A stretch of DNA of 64,000 bases from Escherichia coli (GTDB taxonomy: Bacteria > Pseudomonadota > Gammaproteobacteria > Enterobacterales > Enterobacteriaceae). The stretch lies in the NCBI RefSeq assembly GCF_003790525.1, contig NZ_CP033635.1. The stretch is one strand, 5' to 3'. Shown here piece after piece: positions 20,150 to 61,299 of this stretch (position 1 is the stretch's first letter; each line of letters begins with the position of its first letter). The position numbers and the translations under genes are program-made. The notes below the pieces were generated by a model. It did no database searches and was not told where the DNA came from. It saw only the letters and a program-made list of their open reading frames with translations.

Positions 20150-20540
20150 GTCACTGAAAATAAACAGGATCTTACACCATGTTATCCACAGAAAGCTGGG
20201 ATAACTGTGAAAAACCTCCACTACTGTTTCCATTTACAGCCTTGACGTGCGACGAAACTCCAGTTTTTAGTGGTTCAGTGCTTAACTTAGTGGCACATTC
20301 TGTGGATAAATACGGCATTGGTTGATCTTTCGCCAACCCGTAAATGAGAGGTGTGACCTGGGTCACGAATTACTCTTTTTTATTACTAAAATTACATGTA
20401 ATGCATTGACTGATAATGAATATTTTAAAATGTCCATATCGGGCTTATTCAGAATGCTCCGGGTTTTCCCGTAGTAATTCCGTAGTTCTTCACAACTCTA
20501 TCCACAGAAAAGGTGAATAAAAACGGCTATCCACCCCTTC
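20150..20540. promoter_or_regulatory. DARS2-like DnaA-box cluster in the mutH-rppH intergenic region
   Basis: Perfect DnaA boxes TTATCCACA at 20182-20190 (+) and 20301-20309 (-), near-consensus CTATCCACA at 20498-20506, inside a ~680-bp AT-rich non-coding gap; DARS2 is reported at this locus in K-12. Confidence 0.5.
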
Positions 20541-40645: not shown

Positions 40646-41899
40646 ATGTCAGGATCCAACACTGCAATCAGCCGTCGTCGTTTACTGCAAGGCGCGGGTG
40701 CCATGTGGCTATTGAGCGTAAGTCAGGTCAGCCTGGCTGCGGTCAGCCAGGTCGTGGCGGTGCGCGTCTGGCCTGCGTCCAGCTACACCCGCGTGACGGT
40801 AGAATCTAATCGTCAGCTGAAATATAAGCAGTTCGCGTTGAGTAATCCTGAACGCGTGGTGGTGGATATCGAAGATGTAAACCTGAACTCGGTGCTCAAG
40901 GGGATGGCTGCGCAAATCCGCGCTGACGACCCGTTCATCAAGTCGGCGCGCGTCGGGCAATTTGACCCGCAAACCGTACGTATGGTTTTTGAATTAAAGC
41001 AAAACGTAAAACCGCAGCTGTTTGCCCTTGCGCCGGTCGCCGGGTTTAAAGAGCGTCTGGTGATGGATCTCTATCCTGCCAATGCACAGGATATGCAGGA
41101 CCCGCTGCTGGCGCTGCTGGAGGATTACAACAAAGGCGACCTCGAAAAGCAGGTGCCGCCAGCACAAAGTGGTCCACAACCGGGTAAAGCTGGGCGGGAT
41201 CGTCCGATTGTCATTATGCTTGACCCTGGTCACGGTGGCGAAGACTCCGGTGCGGTGGGGAAATACAAAACACGCGAAAAAGACGTAGTATTGCAAATAG
41301 CTCGCCGTCTGCGCTCTCTGATCGAGAAAGAGGGCAATATGAAGGTGTACATGACGCGCAATGAAGACATCTTCATTCCGTTGCAAGTGCGCGTAGCAAA
41401 AGCCCAGAAACAGCGTGCTGACTTGTTTGTCTCTATCCATGCCGACGCCTTTACCAGTCGCCAGCCGAGCGGTTCCTCGGTGTTTGCGCTCTCAACCAAA
41501 GGCGCAACCAGTACTGCGGCAAAATATCTGGCACAAACCCAGAACGCCTCGGACTTGATTGGTGGCGTAAGCAAAAGCGGTGACCGCTATGTCGACCACA
41601 CTATGTTCGATATGGTGCAGTCGCTGACCATTGCTGACAGCCTGAAGTTTGGTAAAGCGGTGCTGAATAAGCTCGGTAAAATCAACAAGCTGCATAAAAA
41701 TCAAGTTGAACAGGCCGGGTTTGCCGTACTAAAGGCACCAGATATTCCCTCCATTCTGGTCGAAACGGCGTTTATCAGTAACGTTGAGGAAGAGCGTAAA
41801 CTGAAAACGGCGACTTTCCAGCAGGAAGTTGCGGAGTCTATTCTTGCGGGAATTAAAGCGTATTTTGCCGATGGGGCGACGCTGGCGAGAAGGGGATAA
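40646..41899 (+). CDS. amiC: N-acetylmuramoyl-L-alanine amidase AmiC (Tat-exported)
   Basis: Internal ATG at 40646 gives [23 protein letters not shown] (twin-arginine signal); amidase_3 C-terminal domain. Confidence 0.9.
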
Positions 41900-42070
41900 T
41901 GTTTTTATTTATTCAATGAATTTATATTTCGTTGAATAGATAACATTTACCTGAATATTAGACGCTGGTTTTGTGACTGATGTCGGATATTTGAATGTCG
42001 GCTTGAAAAATAAGCCGACCATCTCTTTAATTAAGCACAATTCCGTGTAATGTATACGCATTAGTTAATC

Positions 42071-42145
42071 ATCTTGTAACTGTTAAATCAGGCAAGGCAA
42101 TGTTTGAAGTAATCATTACTTCTGACGTGCCTTGCCTTTTTTTTT
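42071..42145 (+). promoter_or_regulatory. RAT-like element overlapping an intrinsic terminator in the leader of the islet antiterminator gene
   Basis: CTTGTAACTGTTAAATCAGGCAAGGC resembles BglG/SacY-type RAT sequences (TTGTTACTG...CAGGCAAAACC); it overlaps the 5' arm of an extended hairpin (GGCAAGGCA 42091-42099 / TGCCTTGCC 42128-42136, with inner GAAGTAAT/ATTACTTC pairing) followed by nine Ts; GGAG lies about 8 bp before the ATG at 42157. Confidence 0.55.
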
Positions 42146-42156
42146 GGAGCCATGAA

Positions 42157-42981
42157 ATGATCATCGAAAAAGTCATGAACAATAATTGTGTACAGGCATC
42201 GATGAATGGACAGGAGGTTATCATTTCTGGGCCTGGCGTCGGTTACAACAAAAAATATGGAATGTCGGTCCCTGAGCATCCGGCTAACCGGATTTTTTAT
42301 GTCAGAAATGAACAAAAAAATAAACTCTACAAATTGATTGAACATGTGGATATTGAGTATGTTTTTGTTGCCGAAAAAATAGTGCAATATGCGGAGAACA
42401 ATCTCGAAAAAAATCTCAATCCATCGCTACTATTGATTCTTGCTGATCACATTTCGAATGCAATATCCCGAGTCGCTTCAGGCATACAAATTAATAATGT
42501 TTTCCTTGATGAAATCAAAGCGTTGTACAAAGCAGAGTATGCGATAAGTCGCGATGCATTAACTATCATTAATGAGCAATTCAGCGTTCAACTTCCTGAT
42601 GATGAGATTGGTTTTATAGCATTGCATATTTTAAATAATTATGAAAATTCAGTTGATTATGAATCAGTACGGATTATTGAGTTGTCGCAAATAATCACGG
42701 GGCTTATTGAAGTTGTTTATAACAGAAAGGTGGACAGAAGTTCATTTAATTATTCCAGGTTCATGATACACCTTAAATATTTTTCAAGTCGCGTATTATG
42801 TAATGAAAAGATAAAACAAAAAGATATTGGTGACATCTATGAGCAGTTTCTTGAGAAAGACATCCTGTTACAGCGCGCAATTCATGAAATTGAACGGTAT
42901 CTGTATGCCACTTTTAAATATGAATTAATTTTAGAAGAAAAACTATATCTCTCAATTCGTACCAAAGTATTAATGGACTAA
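42157..42981 (+). CDS. BglG/LicT-family PRD-containing transcription antiterminator
   Basis: ORF track 42100..42981; start taken at the ATG at 42157; N-terminal CAT-like region (IEKVMNNNCVQASMNGQEVIISGPGVGY) and PRD regions with conserved His contexts (LPDDEIGFIALHIL, RFMIHLKYFSSRV) resembling BglG (LPKDEVGFIAMHL, RLVTHLKFLSWRI). Confidence 0.8.
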   Translation: MIIEKVMNNNCVQASMNGQEVIISGPGVGYNKKYGMSVPEHPANRIFYVRNEQKNKLYKLIEHVDIEYVFVAEKIVQYAENNLEKNLNPSLLLILADHISNAISRVASGIQINNVFLDEIKALYKAEYAISRDALTIINEQFSVQLPDDEIGFIALHILNNYENSVDYESVRIIELSQIITGLIEVVYNRKVDRSSFNYSRFMIHLKYFSSRVLCNEKIKQKDIGDIYEQFLEKDILLQRAIHEIERYLYATFKYELILEEKLYLSIRTKVLMD

Positions 42982-43012
42982 TTATATATAACATTTATAT
43001 GAGATAACCCAC

Positions 43013-44593
43013 ATGAAACAAAAGAAAGCCTGGAGTTTTTTTCAGAGCCTGGGAAAGGCATTCATGTATCCCATTGCTCTGCTAAGTGTATGTGGCATGA
43101 TGCTAGGGCTGGGAAGTGGTTTAGCCAGTGATGATATGGCAAAGTTAATTCCATTTCTGGCTATTCCAATAATTAAAACCATACTTGATTTCATTGTTAG
43201 TCTTGGTTTGTTTGCCTTTGTTAATTTACCTGTATTGTTTGCGATAGCGATTCCCTTAGGATTATTAAAAGATAAAGAGGATAAAGCCTATGGTGCTTTT
43301 TCTGGCTTAATTGGTTTTATGGCGATGCATCTGGGAACGAACTTTTATCTTAAACAGCACGACTTATTGGTCGCTGCTGACCAAATGTCGACACATGGGC
43401 AAACCATCATTCTGGGGATCCAGTCCTACAATACCAGCGTGTTAGGGGGAATTGTTGCTGGGTTATTAGTCGCCAGCATGTATAAAAAGATCGTTAATTT
43501 ACGCATTCCTGAATCATTAGGTTTTTATAGCGGCCCACGTCTGGTGCCTATCATTACACTGATTGTGATGAGTGGATTTGGTCTGATCATCCCTTTTATC
43601 TGGCCGCCGTTTTTCAATCTTTTCATGCTCATTGGCCACTGGATTTCAACTTCCGGTCCTGTTGGCTATTTTTTCTATGCAGTCGCCGAACGCGTGACGA
43701 TACCTTTTGGTTTAAATCACCTGGTGACGTCAGTTTTCCGCTTTACCCCCATCGGCGGATCGGCAGTGATCGGCGGCGAAGAGTATTATGGCACCCTGAA
43801 CATGTTTATGGCGTACGTCAAAGAGAATGCGGTCATTCCGCTGGATTTGGCGGGGAAAATGGAACAGGGCAAACTGATGATTCAGTATGGTCTGGCTGGT
43901 GCCGCGCTGGCGATGTATCGCACTGCTCATGCTCAAAACAGAAAAGCTATCAAAGCATTGCTTATTTCCGGGGTGCTTACAGTCATTATTGGCGGCGTCA
44001 GCGAACCGATTGAGTTTCTGTTCTTATTTGTCAGTCCACTGCTGTTTGTCTTCCATGCATTTATGAATGGATTCGCCAACATGGTCTTGCCATATATGGG
44101 CGTGAAGATGGGATTTACTGGCGATCTGATTCAATTTATTAGCTTTGGCGTATTGCGTGGCACAAGAACAGGTTGGCCAATAGCGGTGTGTGTCGAAGTG
44201 GCCTATTTCTTTATTTATTACTTTGTGTTCCGTTGGACTATTCTCAAATTTAACCTGATGACGGTAGGCCGTGAAGAGTCCAGTCCTGTCACGCTGAACG
44301 CTCATGAGGATACGGCTATAGCGGATATCCCAACTCCTGATAAATCAGAGCTGCAAGCGGCGGAGCAGATGGTTAAGGCACTTGGTGGTAAAGAGAATAT
44401 TAAGTCACTGGATAATTGCGTAACTCGTTTACGTTTAACAATCGCAGATATGGGATTGCTTGACGAGGCTGCAATAAAAAGAGCCGGCGGAATTGCGGTT
44501 GTTAAACTTGATCAAAATACCCTACAAGTCATTATCGGTACTAAAGTCATCGCCTTGCGTCGGGATATGGATAACTACATGGGGATATGCTGA
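43013..44593 (+). CDS. PTS glucose-family EIICB component, MalX-like
   Basis: 526-aa polytopic ORF with C-terminal EIIB motif NCVTRLR; collinear similarity to K-12 MalX (SYDLGKAFMYPIALLS vs FQQLGKTFMLPVALLS; EPIEFLFLFVSP vs EPLEFLFLFVAP). Confidence 0.85.
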   Translation: MKQKKAWSFFQSLGKAFMYPIALLSVCGMMLGLGSGLASDDMAKLIPFLAIPIIKTILDFIVSLGLFAFVNLPVLFAIAIPLGLLKDKEDKAYGAFSGLIGFMAMHLGTNFYLKQHDLLVAADQMSTHGQTIILGIQSYNTSVLGGIVAGLLVASMYKKIVNLRIPESLGFYSGPRLVPIITLIVMSGFGLIIPFIWPPFFNLFMLIGHWISTSGPVGYFFYAVAERVTIPFGLNHLVTSVFRFTPIGGSAVIGGEEYYGTLNMFMAYVKENAVIPLDLAGKMEQGKLMIQYGLAGAALAMYRTAHAQNRKAIKALLISGVLTVIIGGVSEPIEFLFLFVSPLLFVFHAFMNGFANMVLPYMGVKMGFTGDLIQFISFGVLRGTRTGWPIAVCVEVAYFFIYYFVFRWTILKFNLMTVGREESSPVTLNAHEDTAIADIPTPDKSELQAAEQMVKALGGKENIKSLDNCVTRLRLTIADMGLLDEAAIKRAGGIAVVKLDQNTLQVIIGTKVIALRRDMDNYMGIC

Positions 44594-45768
44594 TGGATGT
44601 TTTTAATACTCCTATTTCCCGCAAAGGAACATATTGTACCCAATGGGACTTTTGCGAGGACAGATTTGGTGTAAAAGATGTATTACCATTCTCTATTTCA
44701 GATATGGATCTTCCGATACCAGACGCTATCACCAGAGCATTAAAAAAACGTCTGGAACACCCGATTTTAGGGTACAGCCGTTGGCAGCATGATGACTATC
44801 TGAATGCGATAGTCAATTGGTATCATCAACAATATAAAACTGAAATCAAACCAGAATGGATCACCTATAGCCCAAGCGTGATGTACTCCATTGCTAAAGC
44901 AATAGAGTTATTGACATCGCATGGTGATAATATTCTCGTTTTTACACCTGTCTATAATGCATTTTTTGATATAATTAAACATAGCGAGAGAAATATTCTG
45001 ACAGCCTCTTTGATTATAAAAAATGAGGGGGGCTACGCTATCAATTGGCAAGATTTTGATCTTAAGATTCAAAGCGCAAAGATGGTGTTATTATGTAATC
45101 CTCATAACCCGACAGGAACAGTCTGGTCGGAAGAAGAACTGCATAAAATCGCTGCAAGCTGTACAAGGCATAATGTCTGGTTATGTTCAGATGAAATCCA
45201 TAGTGATTTTGTTTTTAATCGTAGCTTTACATCCGCGCTTAAAATAAAAAAAGAAAAAGTAGTAGTATTTAACTCGATATCGAAAACATTTAATGTTCCT
45301 GCACTAACAGGATCGTATATGATTTCAACTGACGATAATTTTAATCATAAGTTCAGAACGATATCGAGGTATCGCGATTTTGTAAACTCCCCATCAGTAC
45401 TGAATATAATTGCAACTATTATTGCCTATAACGAATGTGAGGGATGGTTAAAGTCATTAAAGGCACATATTGCCTCTAACATTCAATTCACCCAGCAGTA
45501 TCTGAACGAAAACACTCCAGAATTGATCGTAAGGCCAGCTGATGGTTGCTATTTTTCGTGGATAGATTGCTCTGCTATTGGTTATCCCTTTGATGAATTC
45601 TACAGTCGATTAATTCATGAAGGCAAAGTGGGCATTATGGCGGGGAATGTCTATGGAACGGAGGGGGAGGGCTACCTTCGTCTGAACCTGGCCTGCGGTC
45701 GAGAAAAATTATATATGGGGCTTACGCGTCTTGCGAGTGTAATTAAAAATATTAATCAAGGAAAATAA
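44587..45768 (+). CDS. PLP-dependent C-S lyase / aminotransferase class I-II, MalY-like
   Basis: 393-aa ORF overlapping the PTS stop; GTYCTQWDF vs MalY GTWCTQWDY; PLP-lysine context SISKTFNVPALTG vs MalY SGSKSFNIPALTG. Confidence 0.85.
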   Translation: MLMDVFNTPISRKGTYCTQWDFCEDRFGVKDVLPFSISDMDLPIPDAITRALKKRLEHPILGYSRWQHDDYLNAIVNWYHQQYKTEIKPEWITYSPSVMYSIAKAIELLTSHGDNILVFTPVYNAFFDIIKHSERNILTASLIIKNEGGYAINWQDFDLKIQSAKMVLLCNPHNPTGTVWSEEELHKIAASCTRHNVWLCSDEIHSDFVFNRSFTSALKIKKEKVVVFNSISKTFNVPALTGSYMISTDDNFNHKFRTISRYRDFVNSPSVLNIIATIIAYNECEGWLKSLKAHIASNIQFTQQYLNENTPELIVRPADGCYFSWIDCSAIGYPFDEFYSRLIHEGKVGIMAGNVYGTEGEGYLRLNLACGREKLYMGLTRLASVIKNINQGK

Positions 45769-45770
45769 AA

Positions 45771-46367
45771 ATGAACAGCACGGATCTTATCCATCTCATT
45801 AAACATTTTATGCGTAACGAACATAAAGCAGTTGAAGAAGTTATTGATTCCCCCCTTTCGGAGGTCGCAAATTTAATTAAAGTATTACAGTCTTGTCAGG
45901 GGAAAGTTGTTTTTATTGGTGTCGGTAAGTCCGGTATTATTGCCCGAAAACTCGCCGCAACATTTGCCAGCACTGGAACTCCCTCGTTTTTTGTTCACGG
46001 TACGGAAGCGGTACACGGCGACCTTGGAATGGTGGCGAAAGACGATGTTGTTATTCTTATTTCAAACAGTGGTGAGACGGCGGAAATCCTGGCGACACTG
46101 CCTAGTCTGAAAAAAATGGGTAATTATTTGATCTCTTTTACACGCAGTCATCACTCATCGCTTGCGATAAGTTGTGATTTATCCGTTGAAATTCCCGTAA
46201 AAAGTGAGGCGGATAATTTAGGTTTAGCGCCGTCATGCTCATCAACAGTCGTTCTGGTTGTTGGTGATGCGGTGGCGCTTGCGCTCTCCGAATTGAAAAA
46301 GTTTACTCGTGCTGATTTCGGCTTATATCATCCAGGAGGTGCGCTCGGTATTAAAGCAAACTCATAA
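45771..46367 (+). CDS. SIS-domain sugar-phosphate isomerase (KdsD/GutQ-like, no CBS domains)
   Basis: 198-aa ORF; GVGKSGIIARKLAATFASTGTPSFFVH and LISNSGETAEIL closely resemble the SIS core of arabinose-5-phosphate isomerases. Confidence 0.75.
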   Translation: MNSTDLIHLIKHFMRNEHKAVEEVIDSPLSEVANLIKVLQSCQGKVVFIGVGKSGIIARKLAATFASTGTPSFFVHGTEAVHGDLGMVAKDDVVILISNSGETAEILATLPSLKKMGNYLISFTRSHHSSLAISCDLSVEIPVKSEADNLGLAPSCSSTVVLVVGDAVALALSELKKFTRADFGLYHPGGALGIKANS

Positions 46368-46429
46368 TTTCAAAATATAAATACAGTAACCGGTCACGCC
46401 ATCTTTTGGGGTGGCGTTCTTTGAAGTGA

Positions 46430-47386
46430 GTGTCAGCTATGAAAAATGTTCTGGTCACCGTCCCCAGCTTTTCAGCACGCTGTGTTTCCGCCAGCAAGTT
46501 GCTAAGAGAGAATAATTTTAATCTTATTATTAAGAATAATGTGGAGCATCTGCTTAAATCAGAATCCACTGCATTACGAGAATCTATTTGCGCGGTCATC
46601 GCCGGAAAAGATTGTTATCAGGCGGACACGCTATCATTGCTGTCTGGTGTGAAAATAATATCGAGATTCGGGACGGGGATAGACAATATTGATCTTCGTG
46701 CGGCACAGCAATCCGGTATTGTTGTCAATAATGCGGTTGGGATTAATTCAAATGCGGTTGCGGAATTTATCATTGGACTTATCTTCGCGAGCATGAGAAA
46801 TATCCCCGGTAGCTATCATGCGATGCAAAATGGTTATTGGGGCGAGTCGCATGGCTGCGAGTTACAAGGTAAACGTATTGGCCTGCTTGGCTACGGCAAT
46901 ATTGGCAAAACACTGGCGAAAAGGTTATCTGGTTTTGATGTTGAGCTTTTAGCTTTTGACAAACAACCCGATTTCCAGGCCGCAGGCAAAGATGGAGTTC
47001 AGTTCGTATCAATTGAAGATATCTTTATGCAGTCTCATGTCATCATCGTTCTTTTGCCATTTTCTCCGGAGCTGGAGAACTTCATTAGTCATAAATATTT
47101 GTCGATGATGCGCAATGGTGCTCTGATCATCAACGCCGCAAGGGGAAAGTTGCTGGATGAGGGTGCTTTACTTCAGGTAATTGAAGAACGAAATGTTTTT
47201 GCAGCACTGGATGTGTTTAGCTCTGAACCGCTAGCGCAATTTAGCCCATTGCTACATGCCAAGAATATCATTACAACGCCGCATATTGCGGCCGCCACCG
47301 TTGAGTCATACCAGCAAACCGGGATATACGTTGCCCAGTCGATAATTGATTACTTCGCAGGAAGGGAGATAAAAAACGTGCTGTGA
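46430..47386 (+). CDS. D-isomer-specific 2-hydroxyacid dehydrogenase family protein (NAD-binding)
   Basis: 318-aa ORF with dinucleotide-binding motif GLLGYGNIGKTLAKRL and family-typical C-terminal TPHIAAAT. Confidence 0.75.
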   Translation: MSAMKNVLVTVPSFSARCVSASKLLRENNFNLIIKNNVEHLLKSESTALRESICAVIAGKDCYQADTLSLLSGVKIISRFGTGIDNIDLRAAQQSGIVVNNAVGINSNAVAEFIIGLIFASMRNIPGSYHAMQNGYWGESHGCELQGKRIGLLGYGNIGKTLAKRLSGFDVELLAFDKQPDFQAAGKDGVQFVSIEDIFMQSHVIIVLLPFSPELENFISHKYLSMMRNGALIINAARGKLLDEGALLQVIEERNVFAALDVFSSEPLAQFSPLLHAKNIITTPHIAAATVESYQQTGIYVAQSIIDYFAGREIKNVL

Positions 47387-47411
47387 GTTCAGCTAAGGAA
47401 TATTTCAGGTA

Positions 47412-47445
47412 CAAAAAAACCGCAATTTGTGAAACACATTGCGGT
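47412..47445 (-). terminator. Intrinsic terminator of the metZWV tRNA operon
   Basis: On the minus strand, hairpin ACCGCAAT/ATTGCGGT followed by a U-run, immediately 3' of the last tRNA copy. Confidence 0.5.
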
Positions 47446-47464
47446 TTATCAGCATCATAAGTGT

Positions 47465-47541
<77 letters not shown>

Positions 47542-47575
47542 TCACCGTACTGCTTTTACTTCATCAAATTTTGAT

Positions 47576-47652
<77 letters not shown>

Positions 47653-47685
47653 TCACCGTACTGCTTTACTTCATCAAATTTTAAT

Positions 47686-47762
<77 letters not shown>

Positions 47763-47970
47763 TCCGTGGATGCGCACTATACTCTGCTCGCGTTTTCATG
47801 CAACCTTTTTTTTACCCCGATCACGGATTTGGCATGATTTTGAACAAAAACAAATCACTAAAGCCTATTTTTTGTGCAAAATTTGCGTCGGGGAGAGGCT
47901 GCTCATTTCATTAAACGCGGCGGTTTGTTATCTTCGTTGCGCCTTATTTTTTAACCTGAAGAAGAGAACA

Positions 47971-49068
47971 ATGAAAGGACGTTGGGTAAAGTACCTTCTT
48001 ATGGGCACGGTTGTGGCAATGCTTGCCGCCTGCTCTTCCAAACCAACCGATCGCGGACAGCAATATAAAGACGGGAAATTTACCCAGCCTTTCTCTCTGG
48101 TGAACCAGCCAGATGCCGTTGGCGCGCCGATTAACGCCGGTGATTTTGCCGAGCAAATTAACCATATCCGTAATTCGTCACCGCGTCTGTATGGCAACCA
48201 GAGTAATGTTTATAACGCGGTGCAAGAGTGGCTGCGCGCAGGCGGTGATACCCGCAATATGCGCCAGTTCGGCATTGATGCCTGGCAGATGGAAGGTGCC
48301 GACAACTATGGTAACGTGCAGTTTACCGGTTATTACACGCCAGTAATTCAGGCGCGCCATACCCGCCAGGGCGAGTTTCAGTATCCGATTTACCGTATGC
48401 CGCCAAAACGTGGTCGTCTGCCGTCTCGTGCGGAGATCTACGCGGGGGCATTGAGCGATAAATACATCCTCGCTTACAGCAACTCTCTGATGGATAACTT
48501 CATTATGGATGTGCAGGGTAGTGGGTATATCGACTTTGGTGATGGCAGTCCGCTTAACTTTTTCAGCTATGCAGGGAAAAACGGTCATGCCTATCGCAGC
48601 ATTGGTAAGGTGCTGATCGACCGTGGCGAAGTGAAAAAAGAAGATATGTCGATGCAGGCGATTCGTCACTGGGGTGAAACACACAGTGAAGCCGAGGTTC
48701 GCGAGCTGCTGGAACAGAACCCGTCTTTCGTCTTCTTTAAACCGCAATCTTTTGCTCCGGTGAAAGGGGCAAGTGCGGTGCCGCTGGTTGGTCGCGCTTC
48801 AGTTGCGTCCGATCGTTCCATTATCCCGCCTGGTACAACCTTACTGGCAGAAGTGCCGCTGCTGGATAATAACGGCAAATTTAACGGTCAGTACGAACTA
48901 CGGCTGATGGTGGCGTTGGATGTCGGTGGTGCAATCAAAGGCCAACACTTCGATATTTATCAAGGTATCGGGCCGGAAGCCGGACACCGCGCAGGTTGGT
49001 ACAACCACTATGGACGTGTTTGGGTGCTGAAAACCGCCCCGGGCGCAGGTAACGTCTTTAGCGGCTGA
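47971..49068 (+). CDS. mltA: Membrane-bound lytic murein transglycosylase A (lipoprotein)
   Basis: Internal ATG at 47971 of ORF 47689..49068 gives MKGRWVKYLLMGTVVAMLAACSS (lipobox); the upstream in-frame extension runs through the tRNA genes and is not coding. Confidence 0.9.
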   Translation: MKGRWVKYLLMGTVVAMLAACSSKPTDRGQQYKDGKFTQPFSLVNQPDAVGAPINAGDFAEQINHIRNSSPRLYGNQSNVYNAVQEWLRAGGDTRNMRQFGIDAWQMEGADNYGNVQFTGYYTPVIQARHTRQGEFQYPIYRMPPKRGRLPSRAEIYAGALSDKYILAYSNSLMDNFIMDVQGSGYIDFGDGSPLNFFSYAGKNGHAYRSIGKVLIDRGEVKKEDMSMQAIRHWGETHSEAEVRELLEQNPSFVFFKPQSFAPVKGASAVPLVGRASVASDRSIIPPGTTLLAEVPLLDNNGKFNGQYELRLMVALDVGGAIKGQHFDIYQGIGPEAGHRAGWYNHYGRVWVLKTAPGAGNVFSG

Positions 49069-60753: not shown

Positions 60754-61299
60754 AGCATCCTCTTAGGTTCAGAAGCTTAAGCACGTAATCGGTTATGTTT
60801 TCAAAAGTGCAAAACCAGCGAGTTCGGGCTTCATATCAGTAAATATTTGCCTGTCTGAAATGAACTCATGGATTCATTTTCAAATAAAAAACGCTCTGTA
60901 ATATGACGGCGGTCACACTTATTAGCCGGAAGGTGACTTTATGTGACTACCATCACTTTAATAATCGAAATTTCATGCCCGTTTCAGAAAATAAATCATA
61001 AAAAACACAAACCAGATGACCGTATTAATTGTTTGTGCCGAAAACGGGCATTCCTGGCAGGGAAGAGTAGAAAAATGACCGTTTTGATAAATATTTTTAA
61101 GAGCGGTCATTTTTAATGGGGTTATAAAAAGAGAAATTGCAGTTATTTACTGTGATTAGTTGAACCAGGTCACAAAATATAAGCTTGTGAATTTCTTTCT
61201 GGTTAATCAGGAAGAATATGGTGAGTAATTAAACGGCTAATTCAATAGTGTGAAAGGAACAACATTATTGCCCTGTTTTGAATCAGAGAGAGGTAGCTA

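Follow-up and report, generated by a model that had tools for sequence, protein, structure and literature searches.

What starts transcription of the paf operon, a PTS gene set lying beside amiC in Escherichia coli, and does catabolite control take part? The original prediction, made from sequence within the window (the whole 64,000-nucleotide stretch of contig NZ_CP033635.1 that we analysed), placed a sigma70-like promoter and a CRP half-site upstream of the leader of this gene islet at 41960-42060, and proposed that the islet may be under catabolite control like other PTS operons. The position of the promoter, together with the action of CRP and H-NS on it, would tell how a pathogen-associated sugar sensor switches on in the host. 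Overall, we find it plausible, though weakly so, that the interval is the upstream half of a bgl-like paf control region. Its motifs are a weakly supported candidate promoter and CRP site for an operon already described in pathogenic E. coli, ordinary in kind and without departure from known designs.

Evaluating the locus, we found the gene order recD, argA (- strand), amiC (+ strand), a 5.57-kb islet, the metV/W/Z tRNA genes (- strand) and mltA, in a region 100% identical to E. coli strain SMS-3-5. The islet spans 41898-47464, its left junction (41898) falling within the amiC stop codon (TAA, 41897-41899, + strand), and its G+C content is 29-47% versus 51-54% in the flanks. Identity with K-12 is lost within the amiC stop codon and regained at the metV 3' end, with K-12 carrying at the same junction a TGA followed by an unrelated 73-bp spacer to metV. 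Five proteins are encoded: a CAT-RBD/PRD antiterminator, a MalX-like EIICB permease, a MalY/PatB-family lyase, a SIS isomerase and a 2-hydroxyacid dehydrogenase. The antiterminator gene (pafR, 42157-42981, + strand) belongs to the BglG/LicT family, carries the Pfam CAT_RBD and PRD domains and matches NCBIfam LicT at 6e-67, below the family cut-off, while the PTS permease gene (pafP, 43013-44593, + strand) matches TIGR02004 at 1e-161, also below cut-off. The annotated pafR start at 42157, with GGAG at 42146-49, is credible. A 293-aa ORF from ATG 42100 is not, being an in-frame extension that traverses the leader terminator, and we rejected it as pafR. At the islet's right end, a hairpin at 47417-47449 is preceded on the + strand by A7, which on the - strand is T7 after the stem, so the islet supplies its own replacement terminator for the metZWV tRNA operon; the same hairpin is probably also the terminator for the islet's last gene.

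The paf locus of uropathogenic strain CFT073 (PAI-CFT073-metV) is the same locus as the one in the window, with equal gene order and adjoining amiC; between the amiC stop and the end of the leader's RAT hairpin, the CFT073 spacer shows 100% identity to ours. The known "paf" PTS operon of the metV island, c3405-c3410, begins with pafR. In CFT073, a type VI secretion cluster of 27 kb, which the window lacks, separates this operon from metZWV. By report of the abstract of the original study, no expression from the promoter ahead of the paf genes was detected under many in vitro conditions, and pafR and pafP are said to contribute to the urinary-tract virulence of CFT073. According to a synteny survey, UPEC strains, E2348/69 and SMS-3-5 share the PTS genes c3405-c3410 of PAI-CFT073-metV (PMC2831201), and the names PafR for the antiterminator (BglG family) and PafP for the permease come from Baum et al. 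2014 (Infect Immun 82:4241) as relayed by the papers that cite it. One of these, in the passage citing Baum et al. 2014, states that PafR expression seems confined to the in vivo setting and was absent in urine (PMC4468546). Such in vivo-only expression is not what a simple catabolite-controlled promoter would show; H-NS silencing or the leader terminator could hide catabolite control. The literature yielded no transcription start data for islet-carrying strains and no genome-wide start table for CFT073, UTI89 or Nissle. Across complete E. coli genomes, the spacer between amiC and pafR is found in 1688 of 5426, with 1 of the 1688 matches on a plasmid record rather than a chromosome.

In the leader, the RAT hairpin, CUUGU-AA-CUG-loop-CAG-GCAAG (42072-42097, + strand), is invariant in orthologs and matches the bgl RAT at 16 of 29 positions in a hand alignment, and the terminator (42090-42145, + strand) is a long stem with a nine-T run (-28.8 kcal/mol, z -4.8) whose 5' arm shares 8 nt with the RAT. 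A RAT that overlaps a terminator, upstream of a gene with CAT-RBD and PRD domains, makes this a BglG/SacY-type antitermination leader. Folding of 42036-42100 revealed no significant structure beyond the RAT (z -0.7), and an Rfam search over 41500-48000 returned nothing but three tRNAs. In E. coli ES7, an IS5-like element, ISEc68 (L024 300-1507), has landed between amiC and pafR at TTAG, duplicating 4 bp (the insertion corresponding to window 42061-42064), 8 nt upstream of the RAT and co-directional with pafR; all the promoter candidates considered below, the hairpin and the CRP-like site are thereby cut off from the leader. Only 1 of the 1688 islet-carrying genomes has this insertion, which is reminiscent of how IS elements activate bgl.

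Upstream of the RAT, the amiC-pafR spacer (257 bp, 67% A+T) holds both predicted motifs. The sigma70-like pair was located correctly in position and sequence: TTGAAA at 42003-42008 and TTTAAT at 42026-42031, separated by a 17-bp spacer (42009-42025). Facing pafR, the pair (42003-42031, + strand) matches 10 of 12 consensus positions, with a predicted start at ~42037-42040; the -35 candidate is 5/6 to TTGACA, and the -10 candidate is TATAAT with A-11T, such that T rather than A stands at -11. Scored with a simple hexamer sigma70 PWM, whose consensus-base frequencies follow Harley & Reynolds and are approximate, the pair reached 12.6 bits, the top score in the spacer and third among ~128,000 window positions. 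Under a matrix giving -11 and -7 more weight it reached 10.1 bits, and a consensus promoter scan that demands A at the second position of the -10 omitted it. Dinucleotide-preserving shuffles of the spacer gave a 10/12 pair on the + strand in 14.2% of cases, and the AT-rich islet contains 9 further intragenic PWM matches of at least 10 bits. On fork-junction probes, A-11T cuts RNA polymerase binding ~300-fold to nearly 1000-fold, and T-7 substitutions cost about as much (PMC3753650). Because of this A-11T defect the pair, if a real promoter, should be very weak alone, and T42027A alone would bring it to 11/12. A crippled -10 fits the reported in vitro silence of PafR; it is no proof of promoter identity.

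The predicted CRP half-site is likewise present, TGTGA at 41972-76 being a 5/5 match. It forms the left half of a CRP-like 16-mer, TGTGACTGATGTCGGA (41972-41987, centre 41979.5, no strand assigned), in which CTGATG leads to a right half TCGGA (41983-87) matching 3/5, for a total of 8/10. These scores are half-site match counts to TGTGA-N6-TCACA, with the bgl and fuc regions as positive controls, and the site is the sole match of at least 7/10 in the Escherichia spacer. Matches of 8/10 occur in the window at chance frequency (27 versus 26.05 expected), and one arose in 13.6% of spacer shuffles. Eleven of the 27 are intergenic, although non-coding DNA makes up only 10.6% of the window, and 4 lie in the fucA-fucP control region. 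That divergent region (60902-60957 and 61159-61264), which is CRP-regulated, contains two matches at 9/10 among its four. A further 9/10 match to the CRP core, TGTGACCTGGGTCACG (20352-20367), is intergenic upstream of rppH-ptsP. An imperfect direct repeat, ATGTCGGATATTTGA / ATGTCGGCTTGA, at 41980-42006 takes in the 3/5-matching half of the CRP-like site as well as the 5' arm of the 41997-42019 hairpin discussed below.

Class I CRP sites are centred near -61.5, -71.5, -82.5 or -92.5 (Busby & Ebright 1999). Given a start at 42037-42040, the CRP-like centre would lie at -58.5 to -60.5, 1-3 bp off -61.5, and it is 23.5 bp upstream of the -35 TTGAAA. Of 4000 shuffles, 0.175% contained both motifs with the CRP-like site at most 3 bp from a class I/II position, a rate whose thresholds were set post hoc. 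Thus the positions and sequences of the predicted motifs are right and each motif alone is unremarkable against shuffles, while the combination with its spacing is suggestive. Catabolite control of paf via the predicted CRP site is possible, and we hold CRP control through 41972-87 as a tentative reading, with somewhat less than an even chance of being right.

Two hairpins lie between amiC and the leader. The first, IR1 (41905-41943, + strand; -15.4 kcal/mol, z -5.8), is an AU-rich hairpin with a 16-bp stem directly 3' of amiC and without a U-tail. It is kept in all Escherichia lineages, with compensatory TT->CC / AA->GG changes in the E69 lineage, and is absent in Citrobacter; it could be a palindrome bound by a protein, or a stabilising element for the 3' end of amiC. 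The second (41997-42019, + strand; -13.3 kcal/mol, z -4.1), also flagged by a terminator scan, has the form GTCGGCTTG-AAAAA-TAAGCCGAC with 9 pairs, 5 of them G-C and the last G-U, followed by a T-rich tail, CATCTCTTTAATT, that is interrupted (CAUCUCUUUAAUU). A function as weak intrinsic terminator or insulator for amiC is probable. This second hairpin overlaps the promoter candidate: TTGAAA runs from the two uppermost pairs of its stem (T42003, T42004) into its loop, and TTTAAT lies within its T-rich tail. Of 4 Escherichia lineages, 2 have it in strong form and the others in weak form, Atlantibacter lacks it, and E. whittamii forms an equally strong hairpin in a shifted register through multiple substitutions that lose the -35. 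RNAalifold across genera found no common-register structure or covariation for 41997-42019, so we claim retention in shifted registers and no covariation.

These hairpins, with the shuffle rates above, bear on an account in which the motifs are fortuitous features of AT-rich acquired DNA and the leader is fed by amiC read-through over two leaky hairpins, or by scattered weak starts, with H-NS silencing and the PafR/RAT step providing all specific control. In its favour, both hairpins lack a proper U-tract, each of the three genomic contexts of the islet has an upstream gene in the same orientation, each motif turns up in ~14% of shuffles, 8/10 CRP-like matches sit at chance frequency in the window, and the islet contains the 9 further intragenic PWM matches of at least 10 bits. 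However, joint occurrence of the two motifs with suitable spacing is rare (0.175%). Furthermore, since amiC is a housekeeping gene, read-through would make leader transcription constitutive, a poor fit to in vivo-only expression, though leader termination might hide that transcription. We consider this account improbable, and comparison across genera adds a point on each side.

Orthologous control regions were drawn from E. whittamii, a divergent Escherichia lineage labelled E. coli E69, two metagenome Escherichia alleles, Atlantibacter hermannii and four Citrobacter. In Atlantibacter the islet adjoins amiC, as in E. coli, and its dehydrogenase gene is split into two ORFs, a likely pseudogene; in Citrobacter the same operon, with a nearly identical leader, is found in the context fadE, yafV-like, cpxP/spy-like, islet, dnaQ. 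Almost no gaps interrupt the alignment between ~41967 and the start codon, and the share of variable columns increases with distance upstream of the RAT, from 29% in the RAT/terminator (across genera) to 42% at 42020-42069, 70-73% at 41967-42019 and 87% in the spacer further upstream. The 42020-42069 segment (+ strand) is the most conserved block outside the RAT, and it and the TGTGA half, which is invariant in five Escherichia lineages and Atlantibacter, are more conserved than their surroundings, which speaks against purely fortuitous motifs. The right half of the CRP-like site is poor, and outside Escherichia, Citrobacter included, the whole site drops to 6-7/10. Across all genera there is no promoter candidate that is both strong and conserved, a point in favour of fortuitous motifs.

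The sigma70-like pair itself fares poorly in this comparison. Its -35 region is the most variable stretch among the Escherichia orthologs, with 3 of 6 positions variable in Escherichia, including all three of TTG (TTAAAA, CAGAAA); elsewhere it reads TCCCAA or TCCAAA, and neither E. whittamii nor Citrobacter nor Atlantibacter keeps the hexamer, although their leader and 42020-42069 block are conserved. The -10 varies at 1 of 6 positions in Escherichia and 3 of 6 overall, reading TTTTAT, ATTTAT or TGTTAT in other sequences, and no ortholog has A at -11. Scores accordingly fall to 4.1 bits in E. whittamii and to between 3.4 and -0.7 bits in Atlantibacter and Citrobacter. Within E. coli, the CFT073/UTI89/SMS-3-5 allele (~1430 genomes) carries TTGAAA/TTTAAT, and the E2863/ES7 allele (220 genomes, 89.9% identity) carries TTAAAA/TTTTAT, an 8/12 match. 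The candidate promoter of the original prediction therefore survives as the best sigma70-like match in the spacer, but it lacks A at -11 and its hexamers are not conserved in orthologs.

Conservation may instead point to an ancestral paf promoter ~22-27 bp further downstream, inside 42020-42069. Its -10 would lie at 42048-53 (TAATGT here), or would be a TATAxx at 42053-58 (TATACG here) paired with TT.A.. at 42031-36, and transcription would start at A42060, ~12 nt before the RAT; TTGAAA would then just form the loop and upper stem of the hairpin that terminates amiC, whose T-rich tail, or else the -35 region, would include TTTAAT. In the block, 58% of columns are invariant across three genera, versus ~30% for 41967-42019. 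The 42048-53 element reads TA(A/G)(T/G)GT, its T-12, A-11 and T-7 invariant in 12/12 sequences and its changes confined to the least important -10/-9 positions; at the right distance from it stands a CAT (42059-61), also invariant in 12/12. The TATA of 42053-58 is invariant, and the seven consensus-matching positions of TT.A../TATA.. are invariant in 12/12, with 4.6-6.6 bits in every ortholog. Moreover, having moved between contexts (amiC-metV in Escherichia, yafV-dnaQ in Citrobacter), the operon would be expected to bring its own promoter along in the conserved unit, and the hairpin containing TTGAAA is significant and retained by multiple substitutions in E. whittamii. Against this stand PWM scores of 2-5 bits, which 2-3% of random positions reach, and a -35 so nearly absent that none is recognisable and an activator would be needed; the absence of T at -7 in TATAxx costs as much as A-11T, and the register was chosen after viewing the conservation. 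A start at 42060 would also leave the CRP-like centre at ~-80.5, 2 bp off -82.5. On balance we regard this downstream promoter as rather unlikely.

Constraint on 42020-42069 is more likely to act at the DNA level than through an RNA fold, because no significant or covarying RNA structure was found there, and the block may also be a functional 5' UTR. Other promoter candidates were rejected. A sigma54 promoter is suggested only by a TGGCAC in Citrobacter, which by eye is 15 rather than 12 from GC; for sigma28, GCCGACCA resembles GCCGATAA and, by eye, lacks a suitably spaced TAAA element. The invariant TTG of 41991-93, taken as a -35, has no -10 15-19 bp away, and the Citrobacter combination AGGACA-18-GATAAT (window-equivalent 42012/42036) is not shared by E. 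coli, which has AAGCCG/CACAAT.

Weighing these observations, we tentatively take TTGAAA-17-TTTAAT, with help from CRP, as the working paf promoter in this allele, a choice to which we give a little under an even chance. The bgl precedent, the CRP-like spacing, the AT-rich islet and the 0.175% joint shuffle rate count for it; against it, the conserved 42020-42069 block would become an unexplained 5' UTR. To summarize the proposed sequence of events, the CFT073/UTI89-type allele would start transcription weakly from this pair at ~42037-42040. The T at -11 would cripple the promoter and make it depend on CRP-cAMP bound at 41972-87 (~-59.5, class I-like), with an additional in vivo signal probably needed as well. 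H-NS acting on the AT-rich acquired DNA would also keep the promoter down, as in bgl. The transcript would then meet the RAT/terminator leader (42072-42145), where PafR, controlled by PafP, would decide on read-through, and the hairpin and T-rich tail of the same DNA would dampen read-through from amiC. The motifs, hairpins, RAT/terminator, gene content and identity with the CFT073 paf locus are observed, and the start site, CRP binding, H-NS silencing and the hairpin's terminator function are inferred. A stronger version, in which paf is a second bgl-type cryptic operon silenced by A-11T and H-NS and switchable by mutation, by an IS or by an in vivo factor with CRP, strikes us as a long shot.

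Among known systems, the malX-malY genes of K-12 resemble paf in gene content, a MalX-like EIICB being followed by a MalY/PatB-family lyase, and paf has SIS and dehydrogenase genes besides. The promoter of malX depends on CRP. Control of malXY is by the MalI repressor, whereas that of paf is by an antiterminator, and comparison of the paf and malXY control regions detected no similarity. The bglGFB control region of K-12 has the order of elements that is proposed for paf: a CRP site, a weak sigma70 promoter, a RAT overlapping a terminator, a CAT/PRD antiterminator and a PTS permease. In bgl, a Crp-dependent, H-NS-repressed promoter feeds the RAT/terminator leader, and BglG stabilises the mRNA 5' end (PMC9499468). 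We read the bgl region as TTGCTA-17-TAAATT with a CRP site at -61.5 and a 130-nt leader, combining sequence with textbook values. Sequence similarity between paf and bgl is confined to the RAT, and CRP and H-NS roles at paf are putative. There are differences of detail: the bgl -10, TAAATT, has A at -11 where paf has T, the CRP centre lies 25.5 bp from the -35 in bgl versus 23.5 bp in paf, the predicted distance from start to RAT is ~32 nt in paf versus ~40 nt in bgl on our own reading, and paf has no second terminator between pafR and pafP, which are 31 bp apart. The proven wild-type bgl CRP site, TGCGAGCATGGTCATA, is also an 8/10 match, equal to the CRP-like site of paf, and both operons lie in AT-rich DNA and are silent in the laboratory. 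A located paf promoter on which CRP and H-NS act would give a second natural example of the bgl design.
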